NCBI GenBank assembly: GCA_046351515.1
Contig: JAXLYJ010000005.1
Coordinates: forward strand, 242,892-306,891
Origin: Polyangiales bacterium
GTDB taxonomy: Bacteria; Myxococcota_A; Polyangia; Polyangiales; Ga0077539
Direction: 5' to 3'
Length of the DNA: 64,000 bases
The notes beneath the pieces were generated by a model. The model was given only the letters and a program-made list of their open reading frames with translations. It had not been told where the DNA came from and did no database searches. Shown here one piece after another: positions 14,524 through 41,594 of the stretch (positions are counted from its first letter, which is position 1; every line of letters begins with the position of its first letter). The position numbers and the translations under genes are program-made.

Positions 14524-17500
14524 TCACGGCACGCCCATCGCACGCTTCACGAGCCCCTCGACGATCCGCCCGAACTTTCGCACGACCAGGTCCGTGTCGG
14601 GCCCATCGCACTCGACGTAGTGCGGAAACAGCACCTCAGGCAACGGCTGCACTGCGATCTGCGCGCAGCACATCTTGTGTCGACGCGTGAGCTCTTGCGC
14701 GAGGTGCTTGAGCGAGGCGGCCGAGCACTCTGTGGGAAGCCCGTCGGAGATCATCACCAGCAATTTCGCCCGTCGACGCGACGCCCGCGCGGCGTTGGCC
14801 GCGTGCCAAAGCGCGCCCGAGTCGTTGTTTCCACCGCCCGCGTCGAGCGCGTGCACCGCAGGGCAACGAGCGTCGCCCGCGTCGTAGATCACGCGATCGG
14901 TGAAGCCGAAGATCCGCACATCGACGCTCGGCATCCCGCGCGCAGCCTCGGCGATCAGCGCGCCGAACAGCCGTGCGCGAGGCATGTTCTCGCCGCTCGA
15001 CATCGAGCCCGAGCAGTCGATCACCACGCCGATGAACAAGTCTGTCTGCACTTGGATCTCGCGCGCGATCAGCACCCGAGGGTCGCCTCGCGTGACGAGC
15101 GCGCGCGTTCGAGGCGCGTCGACGCGGCGCCCGCGCAGCCGCAGTCGCTCGGGCTTGAGGTGCAGGCCGAGCCGCTCGAGATAGCGCCGCAACGTCGCGG
15201 CTGAGCGCCGCACGCGGTTGGCGAGCGCGTGGTGCTTGCTCGCCTCGTAGCGCACGCGAACGACCTCGTGGATCAGGTCGAAGTCCGTTCCGTCGGTGAC
15301 GTTGATCCAACGTTTGCCGCCCGGACGTCCCGCGGACATCCCGTCGTCTTCGCTCTTGCGCGGGTTGACGATGCGGTCGACCTCGCGACGGATCTCTTCG
15401 TCCGAGATTCCCTCCGCTGCGCGATCGGCGTCGCCGGGCTCTCCTTGCCCCACGTCTTCGTGCGTCGCGCACACGCCGAGCAGCCGGCACTCGTCGCCGA
15501 AGATCGCGCGCACCTTGCGGGCGATCTCGAGCAGCTCGCGCATGGTGCTCTTGCGAAACGACGCCCCCGAGAACAGCTCGAGCGCGCGCGAGACCTTCTC
15601 GTCGTTGTGGCGATCGCCCAGGCCCATGCGAAGCGCGCGCACCCAGCGCGCGAAGCTCGAGCCCGATTTCTCGAGCGCTTGCAGCAGACGGCCGTGCTCG
15701 ACCACGACCGACTCTGCGTCGAGCGCGAAGCGCACGGTCGCGCTCGAGAGCACCTCGAGCATCGACCCTCGCAGCACTTCGAAGAGCGTCGTGATCGCGA
15801 TGGGGCGATCCATGTGCTGAAACGCGTACGCGGTGAGCTTCTTGAGTCGGTCGCCGTACTCCGCGTCGAGCGCGCGGAGGTTGCGCTCGAGGTGCTCGTC
15901 CGCGACGAGGTTGAGCAGCGGCCCGATGCCCTCGCGCGCGCCCTCGTCCCACGCCTCTCGCTGCTCGACGCCCCGGTGATACCGGTGGTGTCCAAACTCG
16001 TGCAGGATCAGCCCCTCGACGACGGCGCGGCCGAATTTCTCTCCGCGCAGCATGGGCAGCGCGCTCACGAAGATCCGGTCCTCGTCGAGCCGCGTGTACC
16101 CGAGCGCTTGATCGCGAGCGAGCTGCAGGCTCATCACGCGGCCCGTGAGCCCGATGCCGATCTGCGCTCCCCACGCGAACGTGCGGGCGATCGCGCGCAG
16201 CTTCAGCGCGCGCGCCGTGCGATAGAGCCGCGTTCGATTGAGCTCGTTGATCGCCGCCTGTCGCGTCTCGTTGTGCGCCGCTCCCTGAAGCAGCTCGGAC
16301 CACGCGTGAGCCGCGATCGCTGGATGGAGCGACGGCGTTCGCAGCAGCCCGATCACGACGGTCTCGTCGACCACCGACGGCCCTGCGGCGATCGCTGCGT
16401 CAACCAGGGCGAGAACGTGATCGATGCTCGCGGTGTCGAGCCAGTCCGCGGCGTTGTCCGTGATCGCCTGCTGCGCGAGCACCACGAAGCCCGTGTCGAT
16501 TCCGCGAGCCCAGAGCCAGCGCGCGACGCGTCGGCGGAGGCTCTCGGCGCTGGCGGCGATGCGCAGCAGCGAGTCTTCGACGGTGCGCGTGAGCGTCGCC
16601 CACGCAGACTCGCGCGCGAGCGAGGTGCCCGCGAAGTCCGCGTGGCTCACGACGTAATCGAGCGTCCACTGCGCGGTGGCTTCGCACGTCGCCCCGAGCA
16701 GCGCGAGGCTCGCCTCGAGCTCCCGCCCGCGAAGCGCGCCGAGCAGCGAGGCGAGCGTCGTCTGCTGCGGTGTCGAAGCGTCGGTGCGCGCCCGCTCGAG
16801 CGCCCGATCAACGGCATCGAGCTCGCCAGCGCCCGCGCGCGCGAGCTCGATGAGCACCGCGACGTCGACCGACAGTCGGCCGAGCGCTTCGTCGAGCGCC
16901 TCGCGCAGCGCGCCCGTCCACGACGCGCACAGACGAATGATCGTCGCGCGCGCAGGGGAGGGAGGCTCCATCGCCAGCGCGTGCACGAGCAACGAGCGCT
17001 GCTCGACCGTGCCGGCATCGAGCAGCCGCGCGGCGTCTTCGGCCGTCGCCTGCACACGCAGCGCCTTGACGCTCTCGCGCGTCGCCTTGGCCTCGGCGGA
17101 CAGCTCGACTCGCTTGACGACGCGGGCGTCGAGCCACGGACCGAGTGACGCTGCGCGCGCTGGCGGAAGCTGCGCTCGAACGGCGATCGCCGCAGGTTTG
17201 ACCGCGTCGACGAGCGATCGGCTCTTGTCCGAGCGGCTCAACGCGACGAGCAGCCGCGCGGCGGCGTCGCGCACGAGCGGCAGGTCGTCGCCGGTCATCT
17301 CGTCGACGGCGAGGTCGACGACCGGCTTCCACTCGCTCGGGTCGAACGCGCGATCGTTCGGTCGAGTCGTGCTGATCTCGACCTCGCGCGTCGCCGCGGC
17401 CCACGCGCGCGCCGCGAGCTCTTCTGGCCACGCATCGAGGGTCGAGAGCATCTGCGCGATCGAGCCGTTTCTGCGCGCCGCGTCGACGAAGGCGAACGCG

Positions 17501-19941
17501 TGCCGCTCCCAGCGAAACATCCACGCGTTGGCGAGCAACGAAAGGTCGTCGCGCTGCGCGAAGTGCGTGGCGGCGAGCTCGTCGAGCTGCTGAATCTCGT
17601 CGGCGTTGCTCGGCCAAAACAACCGCAGTACGCGCGCGACGGCGCTCGGCGGATCGTCCGCGCGCAGCAGTGCGGCGCACACGGTCGGGTTGGGCGACGG
17701 GGCTTCGCGGATCTCGAGCGCGGCGGCGACGCCTCGCACCGGCCAACGCAAAAACGGATCGAGCGACGAGTGGAGCGTCTCGTCATCGAGGTACGAGAGG
17801 TCGTCGAGCGCGGCGTCGTCCGGCTTCTGCACGGCGGGACCCGGCGTGGTGCGCGCCTCGACCGCCGTGGTGGGTGGTTCGACGGCCCCGCGCGCATCGT
17901 GGTCGTCGGCGATGTCTGCGGCCGCTGCGCGCGCCAGGGCGAGCGCCGTCCGAATCGACGGGTCTTGTGCGAGGGCATCGAGCGTCGCGAGCGCCTTTCG
18001 CAAGGGCGTTGCGCGGGCGGTGATCACCCTCGCGAGCGCGTCTGCGGGCTGCGCGTCCATCGCTTGCGTGAGCCACGAGACCGCCTGCCGCGGAGGTCGC
18101 TCGTGATCGAGGCACAGCGCGAAGAGCGCGTCGATCGCGGCCGCACCCAATCGCCGCGCGAGCACGATGGCTCCGTCCGTCGACGGGCGCGGCTCTCGGT
18201 CGGTTGAGCCGTTGGCGATCAGCGCTTCGAGCGCGATCTCAGCGCCGACCAGGTCCGCGAGGCGGCTCGACGTCAGGCCGCCGATCGCGAGGACCTTCGT
18301 CGCGAGAACGCGCAGCGACGAGCGGTCGGAGATCTTCGCGACGAGCCTGGCCTGCGCTTCGAACGACGAGGCGGGGTCGCAGAACAAGAGCGCGCCCTGC
18401 TCGGGATGGCGCTCGATGGCGTGGGCGAGTCGATCTTCGCCGACGAGCGCGACGATGCGCTCGTTGGGAGTCACTCCGTCGATGAGCCCGGAGGCCGCGA
18501 GGGTGACGAGCGCGGTGCCGTCGAGCGGGTCGATGCGCCAGCGATTCACGCGGTGGTGCGCGTCGAAGTCGCGAGCGGCGAGCGAGTCGCAGATCATCGC
18601 GCCGTTGGACATCACCGCCGCTTTCAGGGCGCACGAGAGCAAGTGCGTCGAGAGCTCGACGTCCTTGATGGCCGTGGGCGCGAACATGCACACCGCGGCA
18701 AACCCGCCTTCGGACCAATATCCGACGCGCTTGAAGACCGCCCACGCGGCGACCGCGAGCCGCTGTTTGAGGGTCTCGTCATAGGTGCTGGTGAGCAGCT
18801 TCCACCACAAGGTCGACGGGACGTCGTGGAGGTCGATCGGTTCGTTGGACCACTCGAGCTCGAGCAGGCCGTCCGCGATGTCCGCGGAGTGCTCGTCGAC
18901 GGCCGAGAGGGGCGTAGGCGCGGGGCGCGACGGTTGATTCGAGAGCCAATTGGCAAGCCGATCCGAGCCGATGCGCGAGACGTACTCGACCGCCGTGGCT
19001 CGATCGATCCACCGCCTTCGCGCCGCGTCGATCACGAACGGAACTCCGTGCGCCGGCGGATTCGACGCGCCCTTCACCCACGCAGCGAACCGGGCCGCGA
19101 TCGTCGCCCTCCACTCGTCGTGCGCGAGCAGCGGGAGCTCGCACAGCTCAGCGCCGACCGGCGGCGGGCGGCTCGCGGCGAGCGCGCGAACGTCGTCGCG
19201 ACGGTGCACGACGGCGACGAGCCAACGAGACGGCTCGGCGACGCAGAGCAATCGAAGGACGCGCACCGCGGTCTCGCGCACGCCGGGGTCTTCGTCGTCG
19301 AGCGCGAACTCGATCGCGGCGCGAGCGTGCAGCCCCCTGGCGCCGATCAGCGCCTCGAGCGCGGCGGCGCGCACCGAGGGCGATCGCGACGAGCGTACGG
19401 TGTGCGCCACGACGCCGAGCCACGCGAGGCGGCGGCGAAGCGAGCGCGAGGCGAGCTCGTGCAGCGCCGAGACGAGCTCGTCGTCGGGCACGATGTTCGA
19501 GTCGGACTGCAGCGCGCGAAACAGCGCGACGTCGTTGAAGCGGGCGTTGCGTTGGTGCACGGCGGCGTTGCTCGGAGTTGTACCCTTGGAAGCCGCGCAC
19601 CGTCTCAGGCGTATCGCGCGTGGCCGAGCGCGCCCGGAGAAAAGGCAACGCGCGACGCTGAGCGCTTCTGCGCGCTCTGGCGCCGCGGTTGTTCGCGGGT
19701 GGGCTGCGGGGGGCGAAGTGAAGCGGGCGGCGGGGCCCGCGGGTTCAGATGGGAGCGCGAGGCGAAGGTCTATCGAGAGCTCGGTCGAAGAGAAGACGTG
19801 TCGTCCAAAGACGCCCTGAAGGTGGTTGGTCGTGGGCGTCGGATCCCGCGCGCGACTGCTCCCACCAGAGAAGTCGCCGAACTCGCGCGGTCGTCGGGTT
19901 CGCGCGATCGATTCGCTGTTCGCTCGTCGATCGCAACCCAT
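14524..19941 (-). CDS. Very large multidomain protein: N-terminal HEAT/PBS-lyase-type repeats, central helical region, HExxH putative metallopeptidase-like domain, C-terminal von Willebrand A domain. True start probably near 19560
   Basis: Motifs include HEAT-like DEDPGVRETAVRVLRLL, a zinc-binding-like LILHEFGHH, and a vWA domain with MIDAS DCSGSM…ISDG at the C-terminus. The first ~125 codons of the ORF look non-coding. The alternative frames over the same DNA are Arg/Ala-rich artefacts. Confidence 0.55.
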   Translation of the reverse strand: MGCDRRANSESIARTRRPREFGDFSGGSSRARDPTPTTNHLQGVFGRHVFSSTELSIDLRLALPSEPAGPAARFTSPPAAHPRTTAAPERAEALSVARCLFSGRARPRAIRLRRCAASKGTTPSNAAVHQRNARFNDVALFRALQSDSNIVPDDELVSALHELASRSLRRRLAWLGVVAHTVRSSRSPSVRAAALEALIGARGLHARAAIEFALDDEDPGVRETAVRVLRLLCVAEPSRWLVAVVHRRDDVRALAASRPPPVGAELCELPLLAHDEWRATIAARFAAWVKGASNPPAHGVPFVIDAARRRWIDRATAVEYVSRIGSDRLANWLSNQPSRPAPTPLSAVDEHSADIADGLLELEWSNEPIDLHDVPSTLWWKLLTSTYDETLKQRLAVAAWAVFKRVGYWSEGGFAAVCMFAPTAIKDVELSTHLLSCALKAAVMSNGAMICDSLAARDFDAHHRVNRWRIDPLDGTALVTLAASGLIDGVTPNERIVALVGEDRLAHAIERHPEQGALLFCDPASSFEAQARLVAKISDRSSLRVLATKVLAIGGLTSSRLADLVGAEIALEALIANGSTDREPRPSTDGAIVLARRLGAAAIDALFALCLDHERPPRQAVSWLTQAMDAQPADALARVITARATPLRKALATLDALAQDPSIRTALALARAAAADIADDHDARGAVEPPTTAVEARTTPGPAVQKPDDAALDDLSYLDDETLHSSLDPFLRWPVRGVAAALEIREAPSPNPTVCAALLRADDPPSAVARVLRLFWPSNADEIQQLDELAATHFAQRDDLSLLANAWMFRWERHAFAFVDAARRNGSIAQMLSTLDAWPEELAARAWAAATREVEISTTRPNDRAFDPSEWKPVVDLAVDEMTGDDLPLVRDAAARLLVALSRSDKSRSLVDAVKPAAIAVRAQLPPARAASLGPWLDARVVKRVELSAEAKATRESVKALRVQATAEDAARLLDAGTVEQRSLLVHALAMEPPSPARATIIRLCASWTGALREALDEALGRLSVDVAVLIELARAGAGELDAVDRALERARTDASTPQQTTLASLLGALRGRELEASLALLGATCEATAQWTLDYVVSHADFAGTSLARESAWATLTRTVEDSLLRIAASAESLRRRVARWLWARGIDTGFVVLAQQAITDNAADWLDTASIDHVLALVDAAIAAGPSVVDETVVIGLLRTPSLHPAIAAHAWSELLQGAAHNETRQAAINELNRTRLYRTARALKLRAIARTFAWGAQIGIGLTGRVMSLQLARDQALGYTRLDEDRIFVSALPMLRGEKFGRAVVEGLILHEFGHHRYHRGVEQREAWDEGAREGIGPLLNLVADEHLERNLRALDAEYGDRLKKLTAYAFQHMDRPIAITTLFEVLRGSMLEVLSSATVRFALDAESVVVEHGRLLQALEKSGSSFARWVRALRMGLGDRHNDEKVSRALELFSGASFRKSTMRELLEIARKVRAIFGDECRLLGVCATHEDVGQGEPGDADRAAEGISDEEIRREVDRIVNPRKSEDDGMSAGRPGGKRWINVTDGTDFDLIHEVVRVRYEASKHHALANRVRRSAATLRRYLERLGLHLKPERLRLRGRRVDAPRTRALVTRGDPRVLIAREIQVQTDLFIGVVIDCSGSMSSGENMPRARLFGALIAEAARGMPSVDVRIFGFTDRVIYDAGDARCPAVHALDAGGGNNDSGALWHAANAARASRRRAKLLVMISDGLPTECSAASLKHLAQELTRRHKMCCAQIAVQPLPEVLFPHYVECDGPDTDLVVRKFGRIVEGLVKRAMGVP

Positions 19942-20396
19942 GAACTCCGGATCGACTCTCGATCGGGGCGCGCTCGCGAAGAAGCGCGGCGACCTCGAGT
20001 GCGGTGCCAGGAGCGTTGGTTCGTGCTCGTGCGGACCTTTGCTCGCTCAATCCCTCTGCGTCCCGTCGAGAAAGAGATCTCTCGGGGACCGTTCGTGCTG
20101 AGATGCTCCGTCGAAGCTGCGCTCAATCCAAACGCAGCTCAGGAGCCTCGCTCTGACTCATCGCGGGCGGCGCGCGGATGCTCTCCGCTGGCGCGCGAAC
20201 CACTGGCTCGCGCGCTCGCCGCCCACGCTGAGCGTGAAGGCGGATCATCGTTGTTGGTCCTTCGTTGGGAGGGGGTAAAAGATCGGTGCTCGTGCGAAAC
20301 GTGCGCGTTGCGCACACCGCGGCGAGCGGCGACGGACCTGACACTAGCCACCCTCGTCCTTCGCGCAAGGGCGCGAGGTATCGTCGCTGTCACGCA

Positions 20397-21311
20397 ATGT
20401 CCAACGATTCGCCCGAGCCTTCGCGCCCGCCGCGCACGGCGCTGATCCGCCCCGAGAACGTCCGGCGCCTCGGCGTGAAGAAGCAGCTCTTCACGGACCT
20501 GTATCACCACTTGCTGACCATCTCGTGGCCGCGCTTTCTCGTGGTGGTGCTGGCCTCGTACCTCGCGGTCAACGTCTTGTTTGCGGCGCTGTACCTGCTC
20601 GATCGCGACGCGCTCGAGGGCGGCTCGGGCAACCGCGCGCTCGACGCGTTCTTCTTCTCGGTGCAGACGATGGCGACGATCGGCTATGGAAAAATGACGC
20701 CGAAGTCATCGTTCGCCAACGCGCTCGTGACGCTCGAAGCCCTCACCGGGATGCTCTCGATGGCGATGGCGACCGGGCTTCTGTTCGCGAAGTTCTCGCG
20801 GCCCTCGGCGCGCGTGCTCTTCTCGGACACGTGCGTTGTGCAGAAGCGCGACGGCGTCAGCACGCTCGTGTTTCGCATGGTCAACGAGCGAACGACGCAG
20901 ATCGTCGAGGCGCAGGTGAGGGTGGTCTTGCTCACCGACGAGGTGACGCGCGAGGGAGACACGATCCGTCGGCTTCGCGATCTGCAGCTCACGCGATCGA
21001 CGACGCCGGCGTTTTCGCTGAGCTGGATGGTCTTGCACCCGATCACCGAGGACAGCCCGCTCTACAACCTCGACGCGGCGAAGCTCGCCGAGAAGAACGC
21101 GTCGATCTTGGTCTCGTTTATGGGGCTCGACGACTCGTTCAACGCGACGGTGCACGTGAGAAAGTTCTACACGTACGAAGAGCTGAAATTTGGCCGACGG
21201 TTCGTGGATATCCTCACGGACGGACAGGACGCGCGCGTGCTCGACGTGAGCCGAGTGCACCTCACCGAGCCCGAGTCCGAGTCCGTCGATCGCGCGTCGC
21301 CGTATCACTGA
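20397..21311 (+). CDS. Inward-rectifier-type K+ channel (KirBac family)
   Basis: Slide helix, TM1, pore helix with selectivity filter TIGYG, TM2 and a Kir-type cytoplasmic beta-rich C-terminal domain. ATG at 20397. Confidence 0.8.
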   Translation: MSNDSPEPSRPPRTALIRPENVRRLGVKKQLFTDLYHHLLTISWPRFLVVVLASYLAVNVLFAALYLLDRDALEGGSGNRALDAFFFSVQTMATIGYGKMTPKSSFANALVTLEALTGMLSMAMATGLLFAKFSRPSARVLFSDTCVVQKRDGVSTLVFRMVNERTTQIVEAQVRVVLLTDEVTREGDTIRRLRDLQLTRSTTPAFSLSWMVLHPITEDSPLYNLDAAKLAEKNASILVSFMGLDDSFNATVHVRKFYTYEELKFGRRFVDILTDGQDARVLDVSRVHLTEPESESVDRASPYH

Positions 21312-21478: not shown

Positions 21479-22969
21479 TCAGAGGACGATGAAGCGCGCG
21501 CACAACGCGCGGAGCTGCTCGGTGAGCTCGGCCCGATCGCGATCGCTCGCGGCCCATGGCTCTCGAACGGCGTCGCACCGCTCGATCAACGCAACGTACC
21601 CCTCGACGAGCGCACGCTCGCACCCCCGCTCGCTCATCCAGCGGCGCGACCACACCGGAACGGCCTCGACCACCAACGCCCCGACCCCCTCTCGCGCGAG
21701 CAGCTCGAGCGCGGTGCGGCGCACGTTCAGCGACGCAAGCCGCTGTTGCACCGCGGCGCTCTTCGCCGCGCGGTGCGCCTCCAGCGCGCGCAGCTCGATC
21801 TGGCACTCGCCGAGCGCGCCGTCGACGTCGAGCGCCTCGATCGCCTCGAGCACCGCCTGGTAGCCCGCAGCGATGATCACCGACGGATCGCCGCGCCCCT
21901 CGTCGTACTCGCGCAGCTCGACCGAGTCGGGCTCGACCGTGTCCGCGCCACGAGGAGCGCGCGCCGCGCGACGAAGGCACCGCGCGCCGCGAAGCACTGC
22001 GCTCAGCCGCTCGCTCGACAGGTCGAGGGCGAGCGCGACGAGCGACCCAGCCGGGCCCTCGCTGAGCGCCGCGGGATGAAAGATCGCCACCGGAAGCTCG
22101 ATGTGCCCGATGCGCGCGATCGAGCGCGCCGCGCGCGAGACCTCCACTCCGCACTCGTCGCACACCGCGCCGGCGTTCGAGCGCCCGGAGAGCGCGCCGC
22201 ACAGGCACACAAAATCAACATCGCTCCCGAAGATCTGCGCTGATCCGAGCCCCTCTCGCGCTGACGGATCGCGCTCGATCGTGCGCACCCTGCCTGTCGA
22301 CCGCGCGCGCCACGCCTCGCTCGACCGCAAGCTCGGCGGCGCGTCTGCGTCCCACCGCGCTGAAAAGAAATCGAGCGCGGGCGCGAGCGCGGCGAGCTGA
22401 CGCGCGATGTCCTCGTCGTCGGCGCGCGTCCACTCGTCCTCGAGCGAGCGAGCTTCGTCGAGGGCGTCGCGCCGTCGAGCGCGTTCGGCGAGGGAATCTG
22501 CGCTGCGTTTGACGATCCACGAGCGGCTCTCGCACGGCTCCATCGACCGCGCCAAGGCGAGCGCGCGCGTCCACGCCTCGCCGGCCTCGTGCTCGTCGCC
22601 GAGCAGCTCGTGCGCGCGGGCGAGGTCCGCCGCTGCCTCTGCGCGAGCCTCGACGGTGCCGCCTCCTTCGTCCTGCCACCGGGACGCTGCGTGCAAGTGC
22701 GCGATCGCGCTGCGCGCGCGGCCCGAGGCGAGCTCGTTTCGCGCGAGGTGCCTCGCGATCGTCGCGGCGTGCTCCCCCGACTCGCCGCCGAGCGTCCGCG
22801 GATCGACGCCCAACGACGCGAGCAACTCGAGCGCCCTCGATCCGCGCTCGACGGGGTCCACGGTCGCGTCGAGCAGCGCAGGGCGCGCGATTTCGTCGGC
22901 CCGCTGCGCGAGCAGGGCGCGCTGCGCCTCGGGCTCTTCGAGCGCTCGTTGTTCGAGCTCGTCGTCCAT
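21479..22969 (-). CDS. Helical/TPR-like protein with embedded RNA-polymerase beta' N-terminal zinc-ribbon-like motif; function unknown
   Basis: IFGSDVDFVCLCGALSGRSNAGAVCDECGVEVSRAARSIARIGHIELPVAIFHP aligns with RpoC [55 protein letters not shown] (all 4 Zn-Cys plus GHIEL). ATG at 22967-22969 overlaps the lipB stop. Confidence 0.55.
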   Translation of the reverse strand: MDDELEQRALEEPEAQRALLAQRADEIARPALLDATVDPVERGSRALELLASLGVDPRTLGGESGEHAATIARHLARNELASGRARSAIAHLHAASRWQDEGGGTVEARAEAAADLARAHELLGDEHEAGEAWTRALALARSMEPCESRSWIVKRSADSLAERARRRDALDEARSLEDEWTRADDEDIARQLAALAPALDFFSARWDADAPPSLRSSEAWRARSTGRVRTIERDPSAREGLGSAQIFGSDVDFVCLCGALSGRSNAGAVCDECGVEVSRAARSIARIGHIELPVAIFHPAALSEGPAGSLVALALDLSSERLSAVLRGARCLRRAARAPRGADTVEPDSVELREYDEGRGDPSVIIAAGYQAVLEAIEALDVDGALGECQIELRALEAHRAAKSAAVQQRLASLNVRRTALELLAREGVGALVVEAVPVWSRRWMSERGCERALVEGYVALIERCDAVREPWAASDRDRAELTEQLRALCARFIVL

Positions 22970-22974
22970 CACGG

Positions 22975-23694
22975 CTATGGCCCGTCCACGCAGCGCGCGG
23001 CGAACACGTCTTCGAAGTGCGAGACCGCGCGTCGCGCGAACCACTGCATGCCCGGCAGGTCTTCGACGCCCAGCGACTCGAGCGAGCACACCGGGTGCTC
23101 TTTGATTCCGCACGGGACGATCATGGCGAAGTCGTCGAGCCGCGTGCGAACGTTGAGCGCGAAGCCGTGCTGCGTGACCCACTTGGAGATCTTCACGCCG
23201 ATCGCGCCGATCTTCGCCGGCCGCTTCGCGAGCTCGTCGCCCGGCCACCGCTCGCGCGGCGCGTCGAGGTCGACCCAGGCGCCGATGAGCGAGCGGTGAG
23301 GCCCCGCTCCGATCGAGAAATCCCAGCACAAACGCGACATCACCTCGACCAGGTCGCGCACATACTTGCGCACGTCGCAGCGGTCGGGGCGCAGGTCGAA
23401 GATCGGATACGCCACGAGCTGGCCGGGGCCGTGGTAGGTGACGTCTCCGCCGCGCGTGGTGCTCACGAGCGCGACGCCGCGCTGCGCGCGCTCATCGTCG
23501 CTGATGATCACGTTGGATCCGTCGGCGCTTCGCCCCAGGGTCAAGACCGGGTCGTGCTCGAGCAAGAGCAGCGTGTCGACGCCTTCGCCGCGCTTGCGTC
23601 GCTCGCACAGCTCGATCTGCATCTCGAGGGCGCGTTCGTAGCCGATGCGTCCAAGCCAACGGGCGGCGAATTTGCGTGCAGGCGCGTCGCTCAT
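22975..23694 (-). CDS. lipB: Octanoyltransferase (lipoyl(octanoyl) transferase)
   Basis: LGRIGYERALEMQ…LLLLEHDPVLTLGR…GGDVTYHGPGQLVAYPIFDL…KIGAIGVKISKWVTQHGFALNV is canonical LipB. ATG at 23692-23694 (complement). Confidence 0.85.
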   Translation of the reverse strand: MSDAPARKFAARWLGRIGYERALEMQIELCERRKRGEGVDTLLLLEHDPVLTLGRSADGSNVIISDDERAQRGVALVSTTRGGDVTYHGPGQLVAYPIFDLRPDRCDVRKYVRDLVEVMSRLCWDFSIGAGPHRSLIGAWVDLDAPRERWPGDELAKRPAKIGAIGVKISKWVTQHGFALNVRTRLDDFAMIVPCGIKEHPVCSLESLGVEDLPGMQWFARRAVSHFEDVFAARCVDGP

Positions 23695-23734: not shown

Positions 23735-24319
23735 CTACCGCGCGCGCTCGAAGATCCACTGCTCGCCGAGGACGTCGTGCTCGTCGACGGCGACCTTTCG
23801 CATCCCGACCTTCTCGAGCACGCGCACCGAGGCGCGGTGCCACGGAAAGGTCCGCGCTTGCACCGTGTGAATCGGCGCTTGATCGAGCGCCCACTGCACG
23901 GCGGCGTGCGTCGCCTCCGTCGCATAGCCCATGCGCTGCACGTCCTCGTCGACGCCGTAGCCGACCTCGGCGATCCCGTCCTCGGGAAACCCGTGAAACA
24001 CCACGCTCCCGACGACGCGACGACGATCGCCCTTCACGATCATCAAGCGATCGCCCCACAGTCGCTTCTCGGGCGCGGCGCGAATGCGGTCGAGCGAGGC
24101 GCTGAACGCTCGCTCGACCAGCGCGCGGCCGGGCCACTTTTGCGGCATGTCGGCGTCGATCAAGCGCCGCGCGTCCTCGCGACGATCGAGCATCACGGCC
24201 TCGACGATCGCGAGCGTGATGGGAACGAGCTCGAGTCGCTCGGTCTCGATCAAGGTCGTCGCTGTCACGAGCTCGCGTTGATCGGCGCGCTGCTCGACCG
24301 CTCCGCTCCGCTTCTCCAT
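23735..24319 (-). CDS. GNAT family N-acetyltransferase (RimJ/RimL-like)
   Basis: TERLELVPITLA… and acetyl-CoA motif RRVVGSVVFHG…GYGVDEDVQRMGYATEA. Confidence 0.7.
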   Translation of the reverse strand: MEKRSGAVEQRADQRELVTATTLIETERLELVPITLAIVEAVMLDRREDARRLIDADMPQKWPGRALVERAFSASLDRIRAAPEKRLWGDRLMIVKGDRRRVVGSVVFHGFPEDGIAEVGYGVDEDVQRMGYATEATHAAVQWALDQAPIHTVQARTFPWHRASVRVLEKVGMRKVAVDEHDVLGEQWIFERAR

Positions 24320-25070: not shown

Positions 25071-25151
25071 CTCGGGCCAATCGCGCGCCGAGTGCTTCGA
25101 GCCGGCGGTTCGTCCTCCCGCTTCGACGGCGGGGACGGTAGAGTCTCTTTC

Positions 25152-26981
25152 ATGCTCACGGATCGCGCGCGCCCCGCGGCGCTGACGGCGAAAAAGTCCT
25201 TCTCGTTCGTTCGACCCTTCGCGTTGATCTCGCTCACGAGCGCGGCCATCGCTGGCTGCGCGCCGATCGCACCGGACGCGAGCGCGCCGATGTCGATGCA
25301 AGTGCGCGTTCCGCAGATCACGCTCGATCGACTCGACGCGCAGTTGCACCTGCGTGTGTTCGAGAAGACCGGCGACCTCGACTGCGATCCCAGCGCCGGC
25401 CGCGTCACCGGCACGATGCCCTACGAGACCATCGCGGGTCGCAACGTCGTCCCCAACGAGCGCTGCGACGCCGCGCGCTGGACACAGCTGCGAATGATGC
25501 TCGGCGAAGCCTCGCCGATCGATACCTGCTTCGATAAGAGCATGCCGATGCAGCCCGTCCGCGTCCCCGGCGGAAAGCGCTACATCGTCCTCATCGAGGG
25601 CTCTGGCAGCGCGCCGGTCCCCGGCGGCGGGACGCGCACGCGCACGCTCGGCTCGGGCTGCGCCGTGGTCAACGCGATGCCTGGGCAAACGGTGAGCGTC
25701 TCGATCCAGATGCAAGAGATCGCCGACGTGGGCGTGTGCGGCGACATGGTCGTCTCGAGCGACGAGGTCTGCGACGAGGGGGCGCCCAGCGCGACGTGCA
25801 ACGCCCGCTGCCGCATCCCCGAGATCACCGCGAGCTCGACCATGGGACCGAAGGGAATCCCGTCGCTCGCGTGGTCGATGTCGAACAACCTGGTGATCGG
25901 CTTCGCGATGGCGGACACGGCGAGCGATCCGCTGCTGCGCGTGTTGAGCCCGCAAGGGACGCTGATCACGAGCCCCGCGATCAACGCGCGCGACAACACC
26001 CTCGACGCGATGGCGCGCAGCGAACAGAGCGTCGTGCGCGTCGCCGCGAGCGCCACCGGCTACGCAGCGGCGTGGCAGACGCTCGAGGTGGTCACCGGCT
26101 ACAACATCAACGGCTTCGGGACGAACAACTTCGACGCTCCGACGCCGCAGCAAATGCTGGTCAACGCCACGACGATGGGCGGAGTGTCCGGCATGATCAA
26201 CCCGTCCGTCGCCATCGGCGGGACGCGCATGTTGTTCGTGTGGGAAGACGCTGATGCGCGCGTGATTCGCACGTCGAACACGATGCTCGCGGCGACGCCC
26301 GCCGCTCCGATGGCAGACGCTCCGCTCGTGGCTGCGGCGATGCCCGGCGGCAGCAACGCATCGACGCCCGTGGTGGCCGCGCTCAACGACGGGACGTTCG
26401 TCGCTGCGTGGGTCGGCGGTGGCGTCGGCTCGAAGGACATCTACGCGGTCAAGCTCAGCGCTGCGGGCGCGGCGATGGGCACGCCGATCACGGTCAACAC
26501 GCAGACGGCCAACGACCAAGATCAGCCCGCGATCGGGACCAACGGCACCGACGTCGTCATCGCGTGGCGCGACGCGAGCCTCGGCGATCCGATGGACATG
26601 AGCGGAACCGCGATTCGCTTCAGGCACTTCAACGGCTCGCTCACGCCGAGCGGAACGGACCACCTCGCGCCCACGACGATCGACGGCGACCAGAGCGCGC
26701 CCACCGTCGCGATGGCTCCGAGCGGGACGTACTTCACCGGCTGGCAGCACGCCGGCGGAACGATCCGCGGCCGTCTCTTTCGCGCGGACGGGACGTTCGT
26801 GGTCAACCGCTTCAGCGCGAGCACCGCGGACTTCGAAGTGAACGCCGCGGCGAACGAAGGCGGCCCTGCGGGCGGCAACCGTCAGGGCCCGTCCGCTGCG
26901 TTTGGCGGCGTCGGACGCTTCGCTGTGGGCTGGCTCGACGGCGCGTCCAATGACATCCGCGTCCGCGTCTTCATCGAGTGA
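25152..26981 (+). CDS. Secreted lipoprotein containing a Myxococcus-type cysteine-rich repeat; beta-propeller-like remainder
   Basis: Lipobox (LISLTSAAIAGC). CGDMVVSSDEVCDEGAPSATCNARCRIP matches the myxobacterial CGDG..E.CDDGN…C repeat. Long Thr/Ala/Gly-rich beta region. Confidence 0.55.
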   Translation: MLTDRARPAALTAKKSFSFVRPFALISLTSAAIAGCAPIAPDASAPMSMQVRVPQITLDRLDAQLHLRVFEKTGDLDCDPSAGRVTGTMPYETIAGRNVVPNERCDAARWTQLRMMLGEASPIDTCFDKSMPMQPVRVPGGKRYIVLIEGSGSAPVPGGGTRTRTLGSGCAVVNAMPGQTVSVSIQMQEIADVGVCGDMVVSSDEVCDEGAPSATCNARCRIPEITASSTMGPKGIPSLAWSMSNNLVIGFAMADTASDPLLRVLSPQGTLITSPAINARDNTLDAMARSEQSVVRVAASATGYAAAWQTLEVVTGYNINGFGTNNFDAPTPQQMLVNATTMGGVSGMINPSVAIGGTRMLFVWEDADARVIRTSNTMLAATPAAPMADAPLVAAAMPGGSNASTPVVAALNDGTFVAAWVGGGVGSKDIYAVKLSAAGAAMGTPITVNTQTANDQDQPAIGTNGTDVVIAWRDASLGDPMDMSGTAIRFRHFNGSLTPSGTDHLAPTTIDGDQSAPTVAMAPSGTYFTGWQHAGGTIRGRLFRADGTFVVNRFSASTADFEVNAAANEGGPAGGNRQGPSAAFGGVGRFAVGWLDGASNDIRVRVFIE

Positions 26982-28969
26982 TGACCGAGCCCGAACGCAA
27001 AGCAGGGACGCTCATCGCGCACCGCTACACGCTCGAGCGACAGCTCGGCGAAGGCGCGTTCGGTGAGGTGTGGACCGCCACGGACTCGAAGGCCTTCGGT
27101 CGCCGCGTGGCCGTGAAGTTCTTGCTGCAACAGCACTTGAACAACGAAGAGGTCGTTCGTCGGTTTCAGCAAGAAGGACAAGCGACCGCAGCGCTCTCGC
27201 ACCCCAACGTCGTCGCGTTGCTCGAGTTCGGAGAGGACGCGCAGCACGTCCCGTATCTGGTCAGCGAGTTCGTCGAGGGCGAGCCGCTGCGAAAGATCCT
27301 CGACCGCAACGTCGAAGAGAAGAAGCTCTTGTCCGTGGACGAGGTGCTCGCGATCTTTCGTCAGGCGTGCGCGGGCGTGCTCGCCGCGCACCAGAAGAAG
27401 ATCGTTCACCGAGACCTCAAGCCCGAGAACATCATGGTTCAGGGGCTCGGGACGCCGGCCGTCGTCGTGAAGGTGCTCGACTTCGGCGTCGCGCGCATCC
27501 TCGGCAAGGACAGCCAGCAATCGCTCGGCAAAACCGAGGTCGGAAAGATCATCGGCTCGCTGCAATACATGTCCCCCGAGCAGGTGCTCGGCGACGTGCG
27601 CAGCATCGATCGACGCACGGACATCTTTGCGATGGGCGCCGTGCTCTTCGAGCTGTTCGCGCAGCGCGCGGCGTTCGACGGCCGCACCTACCAAGAAGTG
27701 ATCGGAAAGATCCTCGACCCCACGCGCCCCAAGCTCGCGACGTATCGCCCCGACGTCGGACCCGCGCTCGACGCGGTGTTCGACAAGGCGTTCGCGATGC
27801 ACCGCGACCAGCGCTACAACGAGATCACCGAGCTGCTCGAGGCCGTCGAGCTCGCGCTCGCCCCGATGGCTCGCCCGCGGCGATCGACGGGCCTCAAGAA
27901 CCCCATCGTTGTGGTCCCGGACTTGAGCGGGCAGTGGGGCGCGTCGCACGACCCTGCCGTCGCGCGGCCGAGCAGGACGAGCTCGCCGGACGCGCCCACG
28001 AAATCAAGTCCGTCGCCCGCCGAGACGACGATGGACGAGGTCGTGCCCGAGAGCGCGAGCCCCGCCCGTCCGTGGTTGATCTTTCTCTCGGTGTTCGTCG
28101 TCGTCGCGGTGGGCGGCTCTCTCGCGGGCACGGCGATCGTCCGCCGGCGCAACGCGCAGGTGGCCAACGCTGACGACGCGGGGGTGGTCGCGGTGGCTGC
28201 TCCTGAGGCGAGCACCCAGCGATTGTCCACGTGGACCGCGCCTCCAGAGGACCCTTCGCAATGGGTGCTCGTCGCCGCGCCTGCGGCGCCCGTGCAGCTC
28301 GGTCGCGAGGGCGGGCCGCCGAGCTCCGATGAGTTCACGTTGGCTGCCGCGGTTCGCTTCGAGGGCCCCTCGTTTCGAATGATGAAGCGCGAGGTCACGT
28401 TCGGCGAGTACGAGCCCTGGAGCGAGGCGAACGGCGAGCATCGATTGCTGATTCCATCGTGGGTTCCGTCGCTCGCAGAGGCGCGCGCGGCGCTTCCGGT
28501 GGTCAACGTCGCGTGGGCGAGCGCGAAGGCGTACTGCGAGGCCATCGGCGGATCGCTTCCGACCGAAGAGCAGTGGGAGTTCGCCGGACGACGCACGTTC
28601 GGCCGCCTCGATCCGTGGAGCGGAACGATGCCCGCCGGAGCGCCCGCCATGGTCGGACGCTCGGGTCGCCTGCAGCCTGCAGGCAGCTTCGCGGGCGATG
28701 CGACGGCCGAGGGAATCCTGGGCCTCGCGACGAACGGCGCCGAATGGACGCTCTCGACCTACCAGCGCGGCAACGGGCTGCGAGAGCCATGGCAGCAGGC
28801 GTATCGCACGGTGCGCGGGCTCTCGCTCTTCGACGAGCTGCCGCGCGGCGAAGCGATGCCCGCGTCGCTCTTGCGTCGCAACGCGGGGTGCGCCACCGGA
28901 GCGTGCACTCCCGCCGAGCGAAGGATGCTCGAAGAAGTGGGCTTTCGCTGCGTCAAACCCGCGACGTGA
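26978..28969 (+). CDS. Ser/Thr protein kinase fused to C-terminal FGE-sulfatase (formylglycine-generating-enzyme-like) domain
   Basis: Kinase subdomains (VAVKFL, HRDLKPENIM, DFG, SPEQ); TM segment (WLIFLSVFVVVAVGG); C-terminal domain with the FGE hallmark …NGAEWTL…GFRCVKP. Confidence 0.8.
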   Translation: MMTEPERKAGTLIAHRYTLERQLGEGAFGEVWTATDSKAFGRRVAVKFLLQQHLNNEEVVRRFQQEGQATAALSHPNVVALLEFGEDAQHVPYLVSEFVEGEPLRKILDRNVEEKKLLSVDEVLAIFRQACAGVLAAHQKKIVHRDLKPENIMVQGLGTPAVVVKVLDFGVARILGKDSQQSLGKTEVGKIIGSLQYMSPEQVLGDVRSIDRRTDIFAMGAVLFELFAQRAAFDGRTYQEVIGKILDPTRPKLATYRPDVGPALDAVFDKAFAMHRDQRYNEITELLEAVELALAPMARPRRSTGLKNPIVVVPDLSGQWGASHDPAVARPSRTSSPDAPTKSSPSPAETTMDEVVPESASPARPWLIFLSVFVVVAVGGSLAGTAIVRRRNAQVANADDAGVVAVAAPEASTQRLSTWTAPPEDPSQWVLVAAPAAPVQLGREGGPPSSDEFTLAAAVRFEGPSFRMMKREVTFGEYEPWSEANGEHRLLIPSWVPSLAEARAALPVVNVAWASAKAYCEAIGGSLPTEEQWEFAGRRTFGRLDPWSGTMPAGAPAMVGRSGRLQPAGSFAGDATAEGILGLATNGAEWTLSTYQRGNGLREPWQQAYRTVRGLSLFDELPRGEAMPASLLRRNAGCATGACTPAERRMLEEVGFRCVKPAT

Positions 28970-30737: not shown

Positions 30738-33263
30738 CTACTCCTTCGTCCCGTCGCCGAGCTGCTTGCTCGTCGCGCCGCCGGAGACCTTCGCGAGCAC
30801 CTCCGCCACCGACGTTCCCGCGAGCAGGCGACGCAGCACGTCCGAGACGCTCTCGCCGCCGAGGATCGCGAGCGGCGCCATGCTCTCCGCCATCTTCTCG
30901 GCCAGCGCGCGATCGCCGAACGCCTGCAGCGCCGCGATCAAATCCGGAGAGAACGCCTTGGCCTTCTCGCTCGCCGCGCGCACCTGCGCGTCCAGCTCTC
31001 GAAGGCTCCGCTCGCTCTCGGCGCGGGCCACTTCGTCCTCGAACTGCGCTCGCGCTCGCTCGCGTCCGAGCTGCGCCGCCGCGACCGCGTCGAGCAACTG
31101 CTGCAGGGCGACCTCCGCGCGATGCCGGCTCTCTCTCGTGTCCGTCTCCGCTTTGATCCGCGCGAGATCCACCTCGTGCTTGCGCGTGACCTCGCGGCCC
31201 TCGATCTCGAGCAGCTGAAGCTTCGTCGCCGCTTCGAGCCCGGCGGACTCTTGCCGCGCGGACTCGCGTGCGCGCGTCAGCTCGAGGCGCCTTCGCTCTG
31301 CGGCGACCGCGAGCGCTTGCTGAACGCTCGCGTGCTGCGCCTCGACGAGCAGCTTCGCGATGGTCTCGTCGCCGATCGAGACGCCGAGCACCTCGAGGTC
31401 GTACACGCGCATGCCGTTTTCGCTGAAACGTCGGCCGGGGCGCTTTCCGTCCTCCGCCTGCGCGCCGAGGATGATCTCGCGGATGATGCTCACGGCGTTG
31501 CCGTAGAAGTGCTCGACGCCGTGCTGCTTGACCGCGTGACGCAAGAGCGAGCGCAGGTGATCGGTCAGGAATTTCACGTAGTTTTCGACGCTGAACCACT
31601 GCGTGGGCTCGCCCTCGAAATCGACGCGGTAGCTCAGCCGCATGTGCACTCGAACGAGGTCGCTCGTCTCGGCCTCGACCAGATCGCTGACCTTGTTGTT
31701 CTTCACGCGCAGGTACGCCGTGCGCATGAGCTTGTCGTCGGTCTTGGGCGTGCTCGTCGACAGCTCCATCGCCTGCAGCGTCTCGTCGTACTCGAGCAAG
31801 AAGGTCGTGGGGCCGACCTCGACGCGACGCTTTCCTGAGCGCGATTTCACGAGGACCGCGTAGCCGGTCCACAAGTCGATCGAGACCGCTCCCTCGAAGC
31901 GGTTGTCGAGCACGATCGTCCGCGGCGGCGTGAACGTTTGATTTCGTGTGACCGCGTCGCCCACGTACGCGGCTTCGCTCTTGGCCTTCTCTGCAGCGGC
32001 GTCGGGCTTGCGAGTGGTGGCCTGGCGCGCCTCGTCGTCGATGACGAACTCGTTGCCGGCCTCCGAGCGCTTGAGCGCAGAGAGCCGCGCGTTGTAGTCG
32101 AGCGCCTCTTTGTTGCCGGGAAACAGCAGCTCGACGCTCTTGGGGTCGAGCACCTTGCGGACGATCACCTCGCGGCGCGGGTCCGGAAGAAACACGGTCG
32201 GGCCGCGCTCGAGCCGGATGTTTCCCTGCGTGCGGTCGAGCACGTACCGCGCTTCACCGGCGGGGATCGCCACGCCGTAGTGGATCTCTCGTCCTCCGTA
32301 GCGGATGAGCGCGTGCTCGGGGCGAGGGAAGTAGATCATCTGCTCGCGGCCCGTGATGAAGAGCTCGTCGCCGACCTTGTAGCTGCGGTCGTTCTCTTCG
32401 TACGGCGCGATGACCTTCACGTAGACGCCCGAGATCTCGGTGAGCTCGATCGCGCGAAACTTTCGGCTCCCGTTGCGCTCGATGAAGGTCTCGGTCGGCC
32501 GCGGAAACACCACCGCCGGCCCCTGAATGAACCGCTTGTTGCCGTCTTCATCGAGCAGGATCGTGTACTCGAGCCGCTCGAGCGTGACCGCGTCTCGGAC
32601 GTACTTTCCCTGCTCGTCCGCGACGACTTCGACGCCCGTCGGAGGGATGTAGAAGCTCACGTCCGTCCCGCGGATCACCAGGTGCTTGCCCATCGTGAGC
32701 TCGGGCACGCTCTTGCTCGGATCGAGCACGCCCTGCTCGCTTCCTTCGGCGACGGGATCGGCGCCGGGCGTGGTCTGCCGCTTGATCACGGCCTTGGCCC
32801 AGTTGGTCTTCGCCGCTTCTTCGTCGTACACGCGCACGAGCAAGTACTGGTTCGACCGGAGGCTGTGCCCAGGGACGACCTTCACCATCTGCCCGGGCCA
32901 GAGCGCGTACGAGACCGGACCGGGCGTGTTCACTTTTCGACCGACGTCGAGCTCGGGCAGGTTGTTGAGCGCGCCGGTTCGCGGATGCGACCCGTCCCTG
33001 GCCGGGTTTTTCAGCACGAGGTACCAGCCCTCGGGCGCGACCGCGAGCACGCCGATCGCTTGCTCGAGCGTCACGCGCTTGAAGCGCTTGGTGTCGTAGT
33101 CGAACACCACGGGCTGATCGGTGTTCGCGAGGCTCGTCTTGTGCGGCCCCACGTAGACGTTGATGTTTCCCTTCGTCTCGTCGGAGATGAACGCGAACTC
33201 GTTGGGCGCCAACACCAGATCGCGCTCGCGGACTCGCTCTCGACCCAGATCCCTCTCGTTCAT
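30738..33263 (-). CDS. Major vault protein (MVP) homologue
   Basis: The N-terminal region is made of repeated ~55-aa beta domains resembling MVP repeats (e.g. VGDELFITGREQMIYFPRPEHAL vs MVP [22 protein letters not shown]). The C-terminal region matches the MVP shoulder/cap-helix (VYDLEVLGVSIGDETIAKLLVEAQHASVQQAL…; KAFSPDLIAALQAFGDRALAEKMAESMAPLAILGG… vs MVP [36 protein letters not shown]). At 841 aa it is close to eukaryotic MVP length. ATG at 33263 with a GGAGGAG RBS. Confidence 0.7.
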   Translation of the reverse strand: MNERDLGRERVRERDLVLAPNEFAFISDETKGNINVYVGPHKTSLANTDQPVVFDYDTKRFKRVTLEQAIGVLAVAPEGWYLVLKNPARDGSHPRTGALNNLPELDVGRKVNTPGPVSYALWPGQMVKVVPGHSLRSNQYLLVRVYDEEAAKTNWAKAVIKRQTTPGADPVAEGSEQGVLDPSKSVPELTMGKHLVIRGTDVSFYIPPTGVEVVADEQGKYVRDAVTLERLEYTILLDEDGNKRFIQGPAVVFPRPTETFIERNGSRKFRAIELTEISGVYVKVIAPYEENDRSYKVGDELFITGREQMIYFPRPEHALIRYGGREIHYGVAIPAGEARYVLDRTQGNIRLERGPTVFLPDPRREVIVRKVLDPKSVELLFPGNKEALDYNARLSALKRSEAGNEFVIDDEARQATTRKPDAAAEKAKSEAAYVGDAVTRNQTFTPPRTIVLDNRFEGAVSIDLWTGYAVLVKSRSGKRRVEVGPTTFLLEYDETLQAMELSTSTPKTDDKLMRTAYLRVKNNKVSDLVEAETSDLVRVHMRLSYRVDFEGEPTQWFSVENYVKFLTDHLRSLLRHAVKQHGVEHFYGNAVSIIREIILGAQAEDGKRPGRRFSENGMRVYDLEVLGVSIGDETIAKLLVEAQHASVQQALAVAAERRRLELTRARESARQESAGLEAATKLQLLEIEGREVTRKHEVDLARIKAETDTRESRHRAEVALQQLLDAVAAAQLGRERARAQFEDEVARAESERSLRELDAQVRAASEKAKAFSPDLIAALQAFGDRALAEKMAESMAPLAILGGESVSDVLRRLLAGTSVAEVLAKVSGGATSKQLGDGTKE

Positions 33264-33300
33264 GATCTCGCTCCTCCAGTGCGCCTGCAGCGGCGATCGG

Positions 33301-33326
33301 TACTTAGTTGTAGAGTGTTACTAAGT
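33301..33326. promoter_or_regulatory. AT-rich inverted repeat TACTTAGT-N10-ACTAAGTA about 40 bp upstream of the MVP start; candidate operator/promoter element
   Basis: Perfect 8-bp inverted repeat (TACTTAGT / ACTAAGTA) in a ~30% GC island inside a ~70% GC region, in the MVP/OPT divergent intergenic. Confidence 0.4.
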
Positions 33327-41291: not shown

Positions 41292-41594
41292 CTCTCGTCT
41301 TCCTCCTGCACACGTGCGCGTGCGATTGCCCGCAAGAGCATCGCACGCATCGTCGATCTGACGCGCATGAATCACGCCGGAGCTCCAGCGTGATTTGCGC
41401 GCAGTCACCGCGCTCTCTCAACGCGGATCGTGAATGGAAGTATTGGTAGCACCTCGCTTCGCCGCCCGTCACCTTCGCGACAGTCATCCACCACCCGCGC
41501 GCAGGACGTTCTCTGTCCGCGCGTCGCTCGCGGGATTGCTCGATGGTCACAGTTGGCGCTGCGCGCGCGGGTCTGCCACGATGCCGCGCCATCT

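Follow-up and report, generated by a model that had tools for sequence, protein, structure and literature searches.

A tetratricopeptide-repeat protein from Polyangiales with a non-catalytic paralogue of the RNA polymerase β' N-terminal clamp module

We analyzed a gene on a stretch of 64,000 nucleotides from a Polyangiales bacterium, in the following called the window (GenBank assembly GCA_046351515.1, contig JAXLYJ010000005.1, positions 242,892 to 306,891). Its product, the TPR-β'N protein or X, combines an N-terminal superhelix of the tetratricopeptide repeat (TPR) type with a non-catalytic paralogue of the N-terminal clamp module of β', the RpoC subunit of RNA polymerase (RNAP). Judged from its sequence, this identity is settled. 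In the cell, the clamp paralogue probably acts as a zinc-stabilised protein-binding module held in a TPR cradle. Few surfaces in bacterial transcription are as conserved and as heavily targeted as the N-terminal module of the β' clamp, with sigma factors, NusG/RfaH, Rho, antiterminators and phage inhibitors directed at it. To our knowledge, it has been described only as part of a polymerase.

Reading frame, domain layout and homology to β'

The gene of X and the parts of its product are, in window coordinates:

21479..22969, minus strand: X, complete coding sequence, 496 residues plus stop (TGA stop codon at 21479-21481), from the list of open reading frames, with the start set by full-length alignment of relatives
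22415..22969, minus strand: N-terminal TPR-like superhelix, residues 1-185, 9-10 helices
22235..22414, minus strand: residues 186-245, equivalent to β' 2 to ~60 (N-terminal helix/strand, SWSxGEV, zipper region), from BLASTP, hhalign and invariant residues
22073..22234, minus strand: homologue of the zinc-binding domain (ZBD), residues 246-299, from sequence alignments to β'
22205-22207, 22199-22201, 22160-22162 and 22151-22153, minus strand: zinc ligands C255, C257, C270 and C273, respectively
21665..22072, minus strand: clamp-core homologue, residues 300-435, equivalent to β' ~114-243, from hhalign, hmmsearch alignments and the conservation profile
21866-21982, minus strand: family-specific, best-conserved segment, residues 330-368, RCLRR..PRGADT.EPDS.ELR.YDEGRGDP, from the conservation profile
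21629..21664, minus strand: lid homologue, residues 436-447, AVPVWSRRW for VLPVLPPDLRP of β', from hmmsearch and hhalign
21482..21628, minus strand: homologue of the clamp helices (coiled coil), residues 448-496; by hmmsearch, family positions 453-493 correspond to RpoC 258-297

A first-pass annotation, made from the DNA letters, had reported a stand-alone open reading frame of 496 residues with a zinc-ribbon peptide, IFGSDVDFVCLCGALSGRSNAGAVCDECGVEVSRAARSIARIGHIELPVAIFHP (IFGSDVDF...IFHP), that has four Cys and the sequence GHIEL. We found the frame on the minus strand, and the peptide is present in X. The core of this observation was right and three of its details were wrong, hence we regard it as partly confirmed. 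One such detail was the position of the motif, given as residues ~335-390 and actually 246-299 (22073..22234). The ATG at 22969 is the true start, as 11 relatives of 491-505 residues align with X from the first residues on (M..LE.RA). A longer, 616-residue reading from a GTG at 23329 overlaps lipB and is not conserved, and was rejected. The GC content at third codon positions (0.87) is typical for genes of the window, and the protein as a whole is acidic (isoelectric point 5.1, net charge -21).

The resemblance of the zinc ribbon to RpoC claimed in the first pass turned out to be far beyond chance. With phmmer, X matched β' subunits only among all chains in the PDB (best E=3.9e-12, query 210-410 aligned to β' 27-207). 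The NCBIfam model TIGR02386 (rpoC) matched with E=7.4e-15 (X residues 237-415 on model positions 34-207), and the BLASTP alignment with E. coli RpoC (E=7e-14) begins with X186 at β' residue 2. A hidden Markov model (HMM) built from 12 family members scored RpoC N-termini at 70-86 bits, some alignments spanning ~217 to 493, i.e., β' ~20-297. Comparison of the family with an RpoC alignment in hhalign yielded 99.7% probability and E=3e-26, with X 213-474 placed on E. coli 23-285. Sequence identity of X with β' is only 25-31%. Two NCBIfam gamma-subunit models matched weakly (E=8e-8 and 2.5e-7), and a search of BFVD for viral relatives turned up nothing but large RNAP subunits of viruses and generic TPR proteins.

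The homologous elements follow each other as in β'. X contains a zinc ribbon, core, lid and coiled coil of the clamp fold; it aligns with E. coli RpoC ~2-309 over ~290 residues with all elements in the same order. The motif SWSxGEV is represented by W220, S224, G226 and V228, the four zinc ligands correspond to E. coli C70, C72, C85 and C88, and RIGHIEL stands for RMGHIEL of β'. The C-terminus coincides with the end of helix 2 in the β' coiled coil (~residue 309), where AlphaFold predicted helices at 451-467 and 476-495. In front of the clamp module, residues 1-185 form a superhelix of tandem helix-turn-helix units as in the TPR class, with a Pfam TPR_12 match below cut-off. The remainder of X had been called unrelated to RpoC in the first pass; this holds for the TPR scaffold, but from residue ~186 to the C-terminus the chain matches β' 2 to ~309. 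Likewise, the proposed domain capture was correct in that a true homologue of the β' ZBD is found in a stand-alone protein, but what was captured is the N-terminal clamp module in its entirety and not the zinc ribbon alone. The first-pass interpretation is hence partly supported. Homology to the clamp module, its extent and the domain boundaries in X are established at the level of alignments.

X is not a polymerase subunit in disguise. It stops at β' ~309, upstream of NADFDGD, so that this catalytic part is not present; X had no Pfam match to Rpb1_2 to Rpb1_5, and it scored 53.8 bits against the 963.5-bit cut-off of the RpoC equivalog TIGR02386. In contrast to the β' clamp, X lacks the catalytic domains, carries TPR in front, has lost basic residues, has H-P-A in place of H-I-W and contains its own segment 330-368. 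The split β' chains, i.e., gamma RpoC1 of cyanobacteria and plastids and those of jumbo-phage RNAPs, all start with the β' N-terminus on a separate polypeptide as X does. However, they are true polymerase subunits of ~620 residues with the catalytic Asp triad, whereas X has 310 β' residues without active site, plus TPR. The archaeal RNAP clamp in complex with Spt4/5 (PDB 3QQC) likewise is a clamp module outside the polymerase on one chain, and it demonstrated that an isolated clamp can be crystallised as a stable unit with Spt4/5. That construct was artificially stitched from pieces of B, A' and A''; X occurs naturally and has a TPR domain in place of any β or β' C-terminal pieces. At the sequence level, X is not a member of the TPR adaptors LGN/Pins, PlcR, Rap phosphatases or Sti1/Hop.

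X had no family assignment in Pfam, NCBIfam or PADLOC. The first pass knew of no described family with this arrangement, and this is supported: none was found in these resources, in database names or in the literature. We found no annotation or paper describing the X family or other non-catalytic β' N-terminal paralogues, and two eLife papers on conflict systems do not describe β' paralogues. What is new is the architecture, in which a known domain stands alone and is non-catalytic.

Family, conservation and contact surfaces

A word-based search gave six close relatives of X. An exhaustive profile search gave six full-length clusters (50% identity), after which the score fell from 338 to 105 bits, and a profile search with a 16-sequence alignment returned the same six proteins only. 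Further searching added P0161 and P0162. The family comprises 12 full-length members of 491-505 residues, in clusters from independent assemblies. Named members come only from metagenome-assembled genomes of Polyangiales or Myxococcales and are labelled 'hypothetical' or 'TPR repeat protein'. A genome scan for X found a single locus; when metagenomes were scanned with the family alignment, the only finding among the matches listed was an ordinary rpoBC locus of Actinobacteria.

Conservation is concentrated around the zinc ribbon. Invariant in the family are the four ligands C255, C257, C270 and C273, moreover R263, R286, G288, H289 and, in the lid, V437, P438 and V439. Mean pairwise identity is highest in segment 330-368 (61%), followed by the adjoining core 300-329 (60%) and the zinc ribbon (58%, with 33% invariant columns). 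It is lower in the TPR (40%, 6% invariant columns) and lowest in the clamp helices (29%, 1 of 49 columns invariant). The low conservation of the TPR suggests that this part serves the structure and not the binding of a specific ligand.

X changes quickly. Between the window and the locus L005 of a relative, identity is 41% for X, compared with 84% for LipB, 83% for GNAT, 78% for the 3D protein, 68% for the kinase and 55% for a giant protein encoded nearby; the evolution of X is 5-6 times faster than that of its neighbours. Pairwise ratios of nonsynonymous to synonymous substitution rates (dN/dS) in close pairs were 0.15-0.23 for X versus 0.07-0.09 for lipB and GNAT. No segment of X exceeded 1 in pairwise comparison of close relatives, and an arms-race signature was rejected, dN/dS being below 1 in every segment. 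By these ratios, X is a real gene under relaxed purifying selection, without sign of positive selection.

The surfaces by which β' contacts its ligands are kept only in part. The loop between the two Cys pairs of the zinc ribbon has a charge of +5 in 19 of 20 RpoC fragments and of +4 in the remaining one, and +4.6 on average in 97 canonical-like matches; X itself has +1 and its family a mean of +0.7. Net charge of the ZBD is +1.0 in the family versus +5.2 in RpoC, that of lid plus clamp helices +0.7 versus +3.6. The strongly basic loop of a ZBD that contacts nucleic acid is hence not found in the X family. Also, H-I-W of β' is H-P-A in X.

On the clamp helices of β', R275, E295 and A302 are reportedly required for binding of sigma region 2.2 (PMC8321222). 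The columns of the docking-site residues for sigma region 2.2 and NusG (R275, E295, A302 and the basic face) are variable in the X family. At the positions of E. coli R270, R271, R278 and R281, X has V, A, A and E, respectively, the R275 column contains R, E, L or a gap, and none of the equivalents of R270, R271, R275, R278 and R281 is conserved. In 4 of the 12 members (P0009, P0010, P0161 and P0162, all of one clade), 10-12 residues of the hairpin tip are deleted. As the basic zinc loop is lost and the hairpin tip is variable or deleted, canonical contacts with nucleic acid, sigma or NusG are unlikely as a conserved function, and mimicry of these contacts by X appears unlikely as well. A decoy for sigma or NusG acting via the clamp helices was disfavoured on account of the variable or deleted tip and the low conservation.

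Gene neighbourhood and distant paralogues

X is the last gene of a three-gene unit:

23735..24319, minus strand: GNAT (Acetyltransf_3) gene, 40 nt upstream of lipB, Pfam E=1e-18; position kept in all contexts
22975..23694, minus strand: lipB (octanoyltransferase), 239 residues, upstream gene of the operon, Pfam LplA-B_cat E=3.4e-35
22970..22974, minus strand: 5-nt spacer CCGTG between the lipB TAG (22977-22975) and the ATG of X

The order GNAT-lipB-X on one strand was found in all seven contexts, i.e., the window and those of six relatives, and GNAT is probably the first gene of the unit. The 239-residue length of LipB is matched by relatives, to which it is 84-89% identical. Co-expression of X with lipB had been proposed from an overlap of the lipB stop with the ATG of X. 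X lies directly downstream of lipB, and co-transcription and translational coupling are very probable, but the overlap itself does not exist in the window, where the 5-nt spacer separates TAG and ATG. At the six junctions of the relatives, 4-nt overlaps occur in four, a 1-nt overlap in one and a 5-nt gap in one (L001).

The linkage reaches much further. In the window and L005, a common block comprises genes for an MVP-like protein, a 584-residue protein, a kinase-FGE-sulfatase protein, a 614-629-residue protein, 3D and GNAT-lipB-X, and it continues past X with a giant protein of ~1700-1800 residues, L25, Pth and a histidine kinase. In all relatives the block around X is syntenic over at least eight genes. 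The linkage to lipB is constant but inherited with the whole block and is therefore not independent evidence of function. A search for orthologues, suggested in the first pass, found relatives in other Polyangiales and Myxococcales that keep the lipB linkage in all seven contexts, but this linkage is inseparable from inherited gene order. More distant TPR-β'N proteins are not adjacent to lipB.

Neither in the relatives' contexts nor at the distant TPR-β'N loci did the conserved neighbours include a gene for a sigma factor, an anti-sigma factor or a NusG paralogue, and X is not linked to rpoB or rpoC. X is not of the zinc-binding anti-sigma (ZAS) type, as its motif is C-x-C...C-x2-C of the β' type and not H-x3-C-x2-C; the Pfam gene lists of the relatives' contexts contained no sigma-factor family.

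Some neighbours merit mention in their own right. Downstream of X on the same strand, the giant gene (14524-19941, minus strand) codes for a HEAT-repeat protein of ~1805 residues without family assignment. Near its C-terminus we spotted by eye the motifs HEFGHH (HExxH) and DCSGSM (similar to the metal-binding site of vWA domains, MIDAS); its counterpart in L005 has 1693 residues and 55% identity. Convergent with X lies a gene for a Kir-type, inward-rectifier-like potassium channel (20265-21311, plus strand, IRK_C E=2.4e-25). It is found in the window, in L002 and on one relative contig, with a matching convergent open reading frame in L003, and is absent in the L005 clade; it represents an insertion, specific to a lineage, that separates X from the giant gene. 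On the other side, the gene of a 629-residue protein without family match (25092-26981, plus strand) shares 4 nt with that of a Ser/Thr kinase carrying a fused domain of the FGE-sulfatase type (26978-28969, plus strand), and both genes are kept in all relatives' contexts. An 859-residue homologue of the eukaryotic major vault protein (30738-33317, minus strand, MVP_shoulder E=1.8e-26, Vault_3) occupies the same place in L005 and another relative. Further away, a 655-residue protein (41394-43361, plus strand) matches DUF6909 over its full length (E=2.6e-206).

X is not the only protein to use this part of β'. Among the 144 best non-family matches of the family profile, 36 had less than 42% identity to the β' N-terminus of E. 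coli or Actinobacteria. Many of these have architectures other than that of a polymerase. P0015, P0017, P0019, P0032, P0040, P0090 and P0129 are helical or TPR proteins with a β' N-terminal part ending at the clamp helices. In others, the β' N-terminal part is followed by other domains, e.g., TIGR02996 in P0013, or a β C-terminus is fused to it without the Asp triad, in the manner of a 'mini-clamp' (P0014, P0020, P0025, P0026, P0030, P0042 and others). P0031 is a full-length β' of 1360 residues in which NADFDGD is replaced by GVALDGLE and which is hence catalytically dead. Of 34 scored divergent matches, 25 have the H-P signature after GHI.L, and their mean zinc-loop charge is +1.9, compared with +4.6 in canonical-like matches. 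The β' N-terminal module is thus common to X and these proteins, but they have less than 36% identity to X, other partner domains and other neighbourhoods.

The distant genes stand after infC (P0019), after a BMC-domain gene (P0090), after an acyltransferase gene (P0014) or alone (P0032 and P0031). P0025 from Streptomyces canus (WP_356248101.1, L014 6001-9813) has 1270 residues with divergent β C-terminal and β' N-terminal pieces. Its gene begins 5 nt after that of an AAA_16/AAA_22 ATPase and lies upstream of genes for VMAP-M2, AAA_5 (MoxR-like) and TerD, a neighbourhood typical of NTPase conflict systems. Non-catalytic β' N-terminal paralogues form a wider radiation that is apparently undescribed. 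A further protein, P0027 (483 residues), consists of Sel1 repeats and a near-canonical proteobacterial RpoC N-terminus with scattered substitutions; it is either a recent repeat-plus-β' fusion or an assembly chimera.

Possible roles of X

We propose that the part of β' that begins with residue 2 and closes with the clamp helices (~309) was copied with its Cys4 ribbon intact and placed behind a TPR superhelix of ~185 residues, the product probably being made from one transcript with GNAT and LipB and coupled in translation to LipB. The TPR would pack on the clamp module as a structural cradle and replace the surrounding parts of the polymerase. The zinc ribbon, the adjoining core and segment 330-368 would be at the centre of a protein-binding surface. 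The module probably does not bind DNA/RNA, sigma region 2 or NusG as β' does; most likely it has a protein as partner, which may be connected to RNAP.

Several points weigh against this proposal. The match of X to Pfam RNA_pol_Rpb1_1 (PF04997), the check suggested in the first pass, reached 13.7 bits (E=0.041) and stayed below the gathering threshold of 39.7 bits, although the other profile methods were significant and the distant relatives P0019 and P0032 carry a PF04997 match. AlphaFold, run with family sequences alone, gave a confident helical repeat for residues 1-195 and a predicted local distance difference test score (pLDDT) below 50 for the remainder. When the alignment also included RpoC fragments, the model of the full chain had pLDDT 95.8 and a predicted template modelling score (pTM) of 0.88, and the best 50 Foldseek matches of the model were all β' chains with ~300 aligned columns. 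The β'-like fold of this model is partly circular, as RpoC fragments were in the input; independent proof comes from the sequence. It is the pTM of 0.88, and nothing else, that suggests a TPR cradle around the clamp module. Moreover, the clamp-helix hairpin is the C-terminal element in every TPR-β'N class seen. Its retention hints at continued importance, perhaps in relation to a sigma or NusG paralogue that is specific to the lineage.

In a different, rather unlikely role, X would be a clamp decoy that titrates a regulator docking on RNAP, e.g., a sigma or extracytoplasmic function (ECF) sigma factor, a NusG paralogue, Rho or an RbpA/CarD-like protein, or else a phage protein that binds RNAP. 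This widens the first-pass suggestion of a free ZBD mimic that might compete for factors docking on the RNAP zinc ribbon. The retained part of β' is exactly the one on which docking sites are known to lie, namely ZBD, zipper, lid and clamp helices, and it ends precisely with the clamp helices in all TPR-β'N classes. The rapid evolution of X and the conflict-system-like surroundings of P0025 would fit as well. However, loss of the basic zinc loop and of the basic clamp-helix face weakens the case for ligands of the nucleic-acid type, and the hairpin tip, which in β' touches sigma 2.2 and NusG, is the least conserved part and deleted in one clade. No segment of X has dN/dS above 1, and no sigma, anti-sigma or NusG-paralogue gene is a conserved neighbour. 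In PADLOC-DB, X and eight relatives had no match at E<=0.1, and membership of X in a known defence system was rejected on this null result.

A related idea, to which we give similarly little credence, extends to the distant paralogues. X and its relatives might be 'polymerase-part mimics' that offer an RNAP-clamp bait, placed in a TPR cradle or fused to the β C-terminus in NTPase conflict systems, and so capture a clamp-binding protein. Candidates for the captured protein are transcription factors specific to the lineage and RNAP inhibitors encoded by phages.

In RNAP, the β' N-terminus clasps the β C-terminus and flap, and the SWSxGEV strand region lies beside the β C-terminus. X might accordingly bind the β subunit or assembly intermediates of RNAP (free β, α2-β) as an assembly chaperone or inhibitor, which we consider improbable. 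The copy starts at β' residue 2 and keeps the SWSxGEV strand region, and in P0014, P0020, P0025, P0030 and others a β C-terminal piece directly precedes the β' N-terminal part, from which it follows that the two pieces are used together. In X, however, no vestige of the β C-terminus was detectable. Residues 188-203 (IARQLAALAPALDFF) were tried as a remnant of the β C-terminal helix/strand of β-β' fusions and rejected, because hhalign gave 2.4% probability and aligned only from residue 213, family-HMM alignments to the fusions begin at 215-226, and BLASTP places the stretch on β' 2-23. Moreover, the AlphaFold model as one compact particle with the TPR (pTM 0.88) suggests that the interface is filled internally, and linkage to rpoB or rpoC is missing.

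Even less probable is an accessory role in lipoate or acyl metabolism, in which X would assist LipB and the GNAT enzyme, e.g., by presenting a substrate protein. The coupling of X to lipB, seen in each of the seven family contexts down to 40% identity of X, would agree with it. Lipoyl domains and the β flap, which faces the β' ZBD, are said to share the barrel-sandwich-hybrid fold, a point ascribed to Iyer, Koonin and Aravind in 2003/2004. But the entire block of 8 to 12 genes is syntenic, the genes of distant TPR-β'N proteins lie behind infC, behind a BMC-domain gene or by themselves, and divergence is 5-6 times faster in X than in LipB, which does not resemble a partner in tight co-adaptation.

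That X is a pseudogenised duplicate of the rpoC 5' end or stems from a chimeric contig is effectively refuted: fast protein evolution and the sub-threshold Pfam match could be so explained, but 12 clusters from independent assemblies share the 491-505-residue architecture, with intact frames, dN/dS of 0.15-0.23, invariant zinc ligands and a confident AlphaFold model.

With X, a copy of the clamp fused to TPR is under selection in a myxobacterial lineage and has many differently built cousins. A natural, independently folding, zinc-containing clamp copy would be a handle on binding to the isolated clamp and on the re-use of core-enzyme parts. Should X act as a decoy or sponge, it would stand for a new principle by which transcription is controlled or phages are sensed, i.e., a decoy-type regulator or immune sensor. 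If it does not, X would be a clean case of neofunctionalisation of a domain from an essential enzyme.

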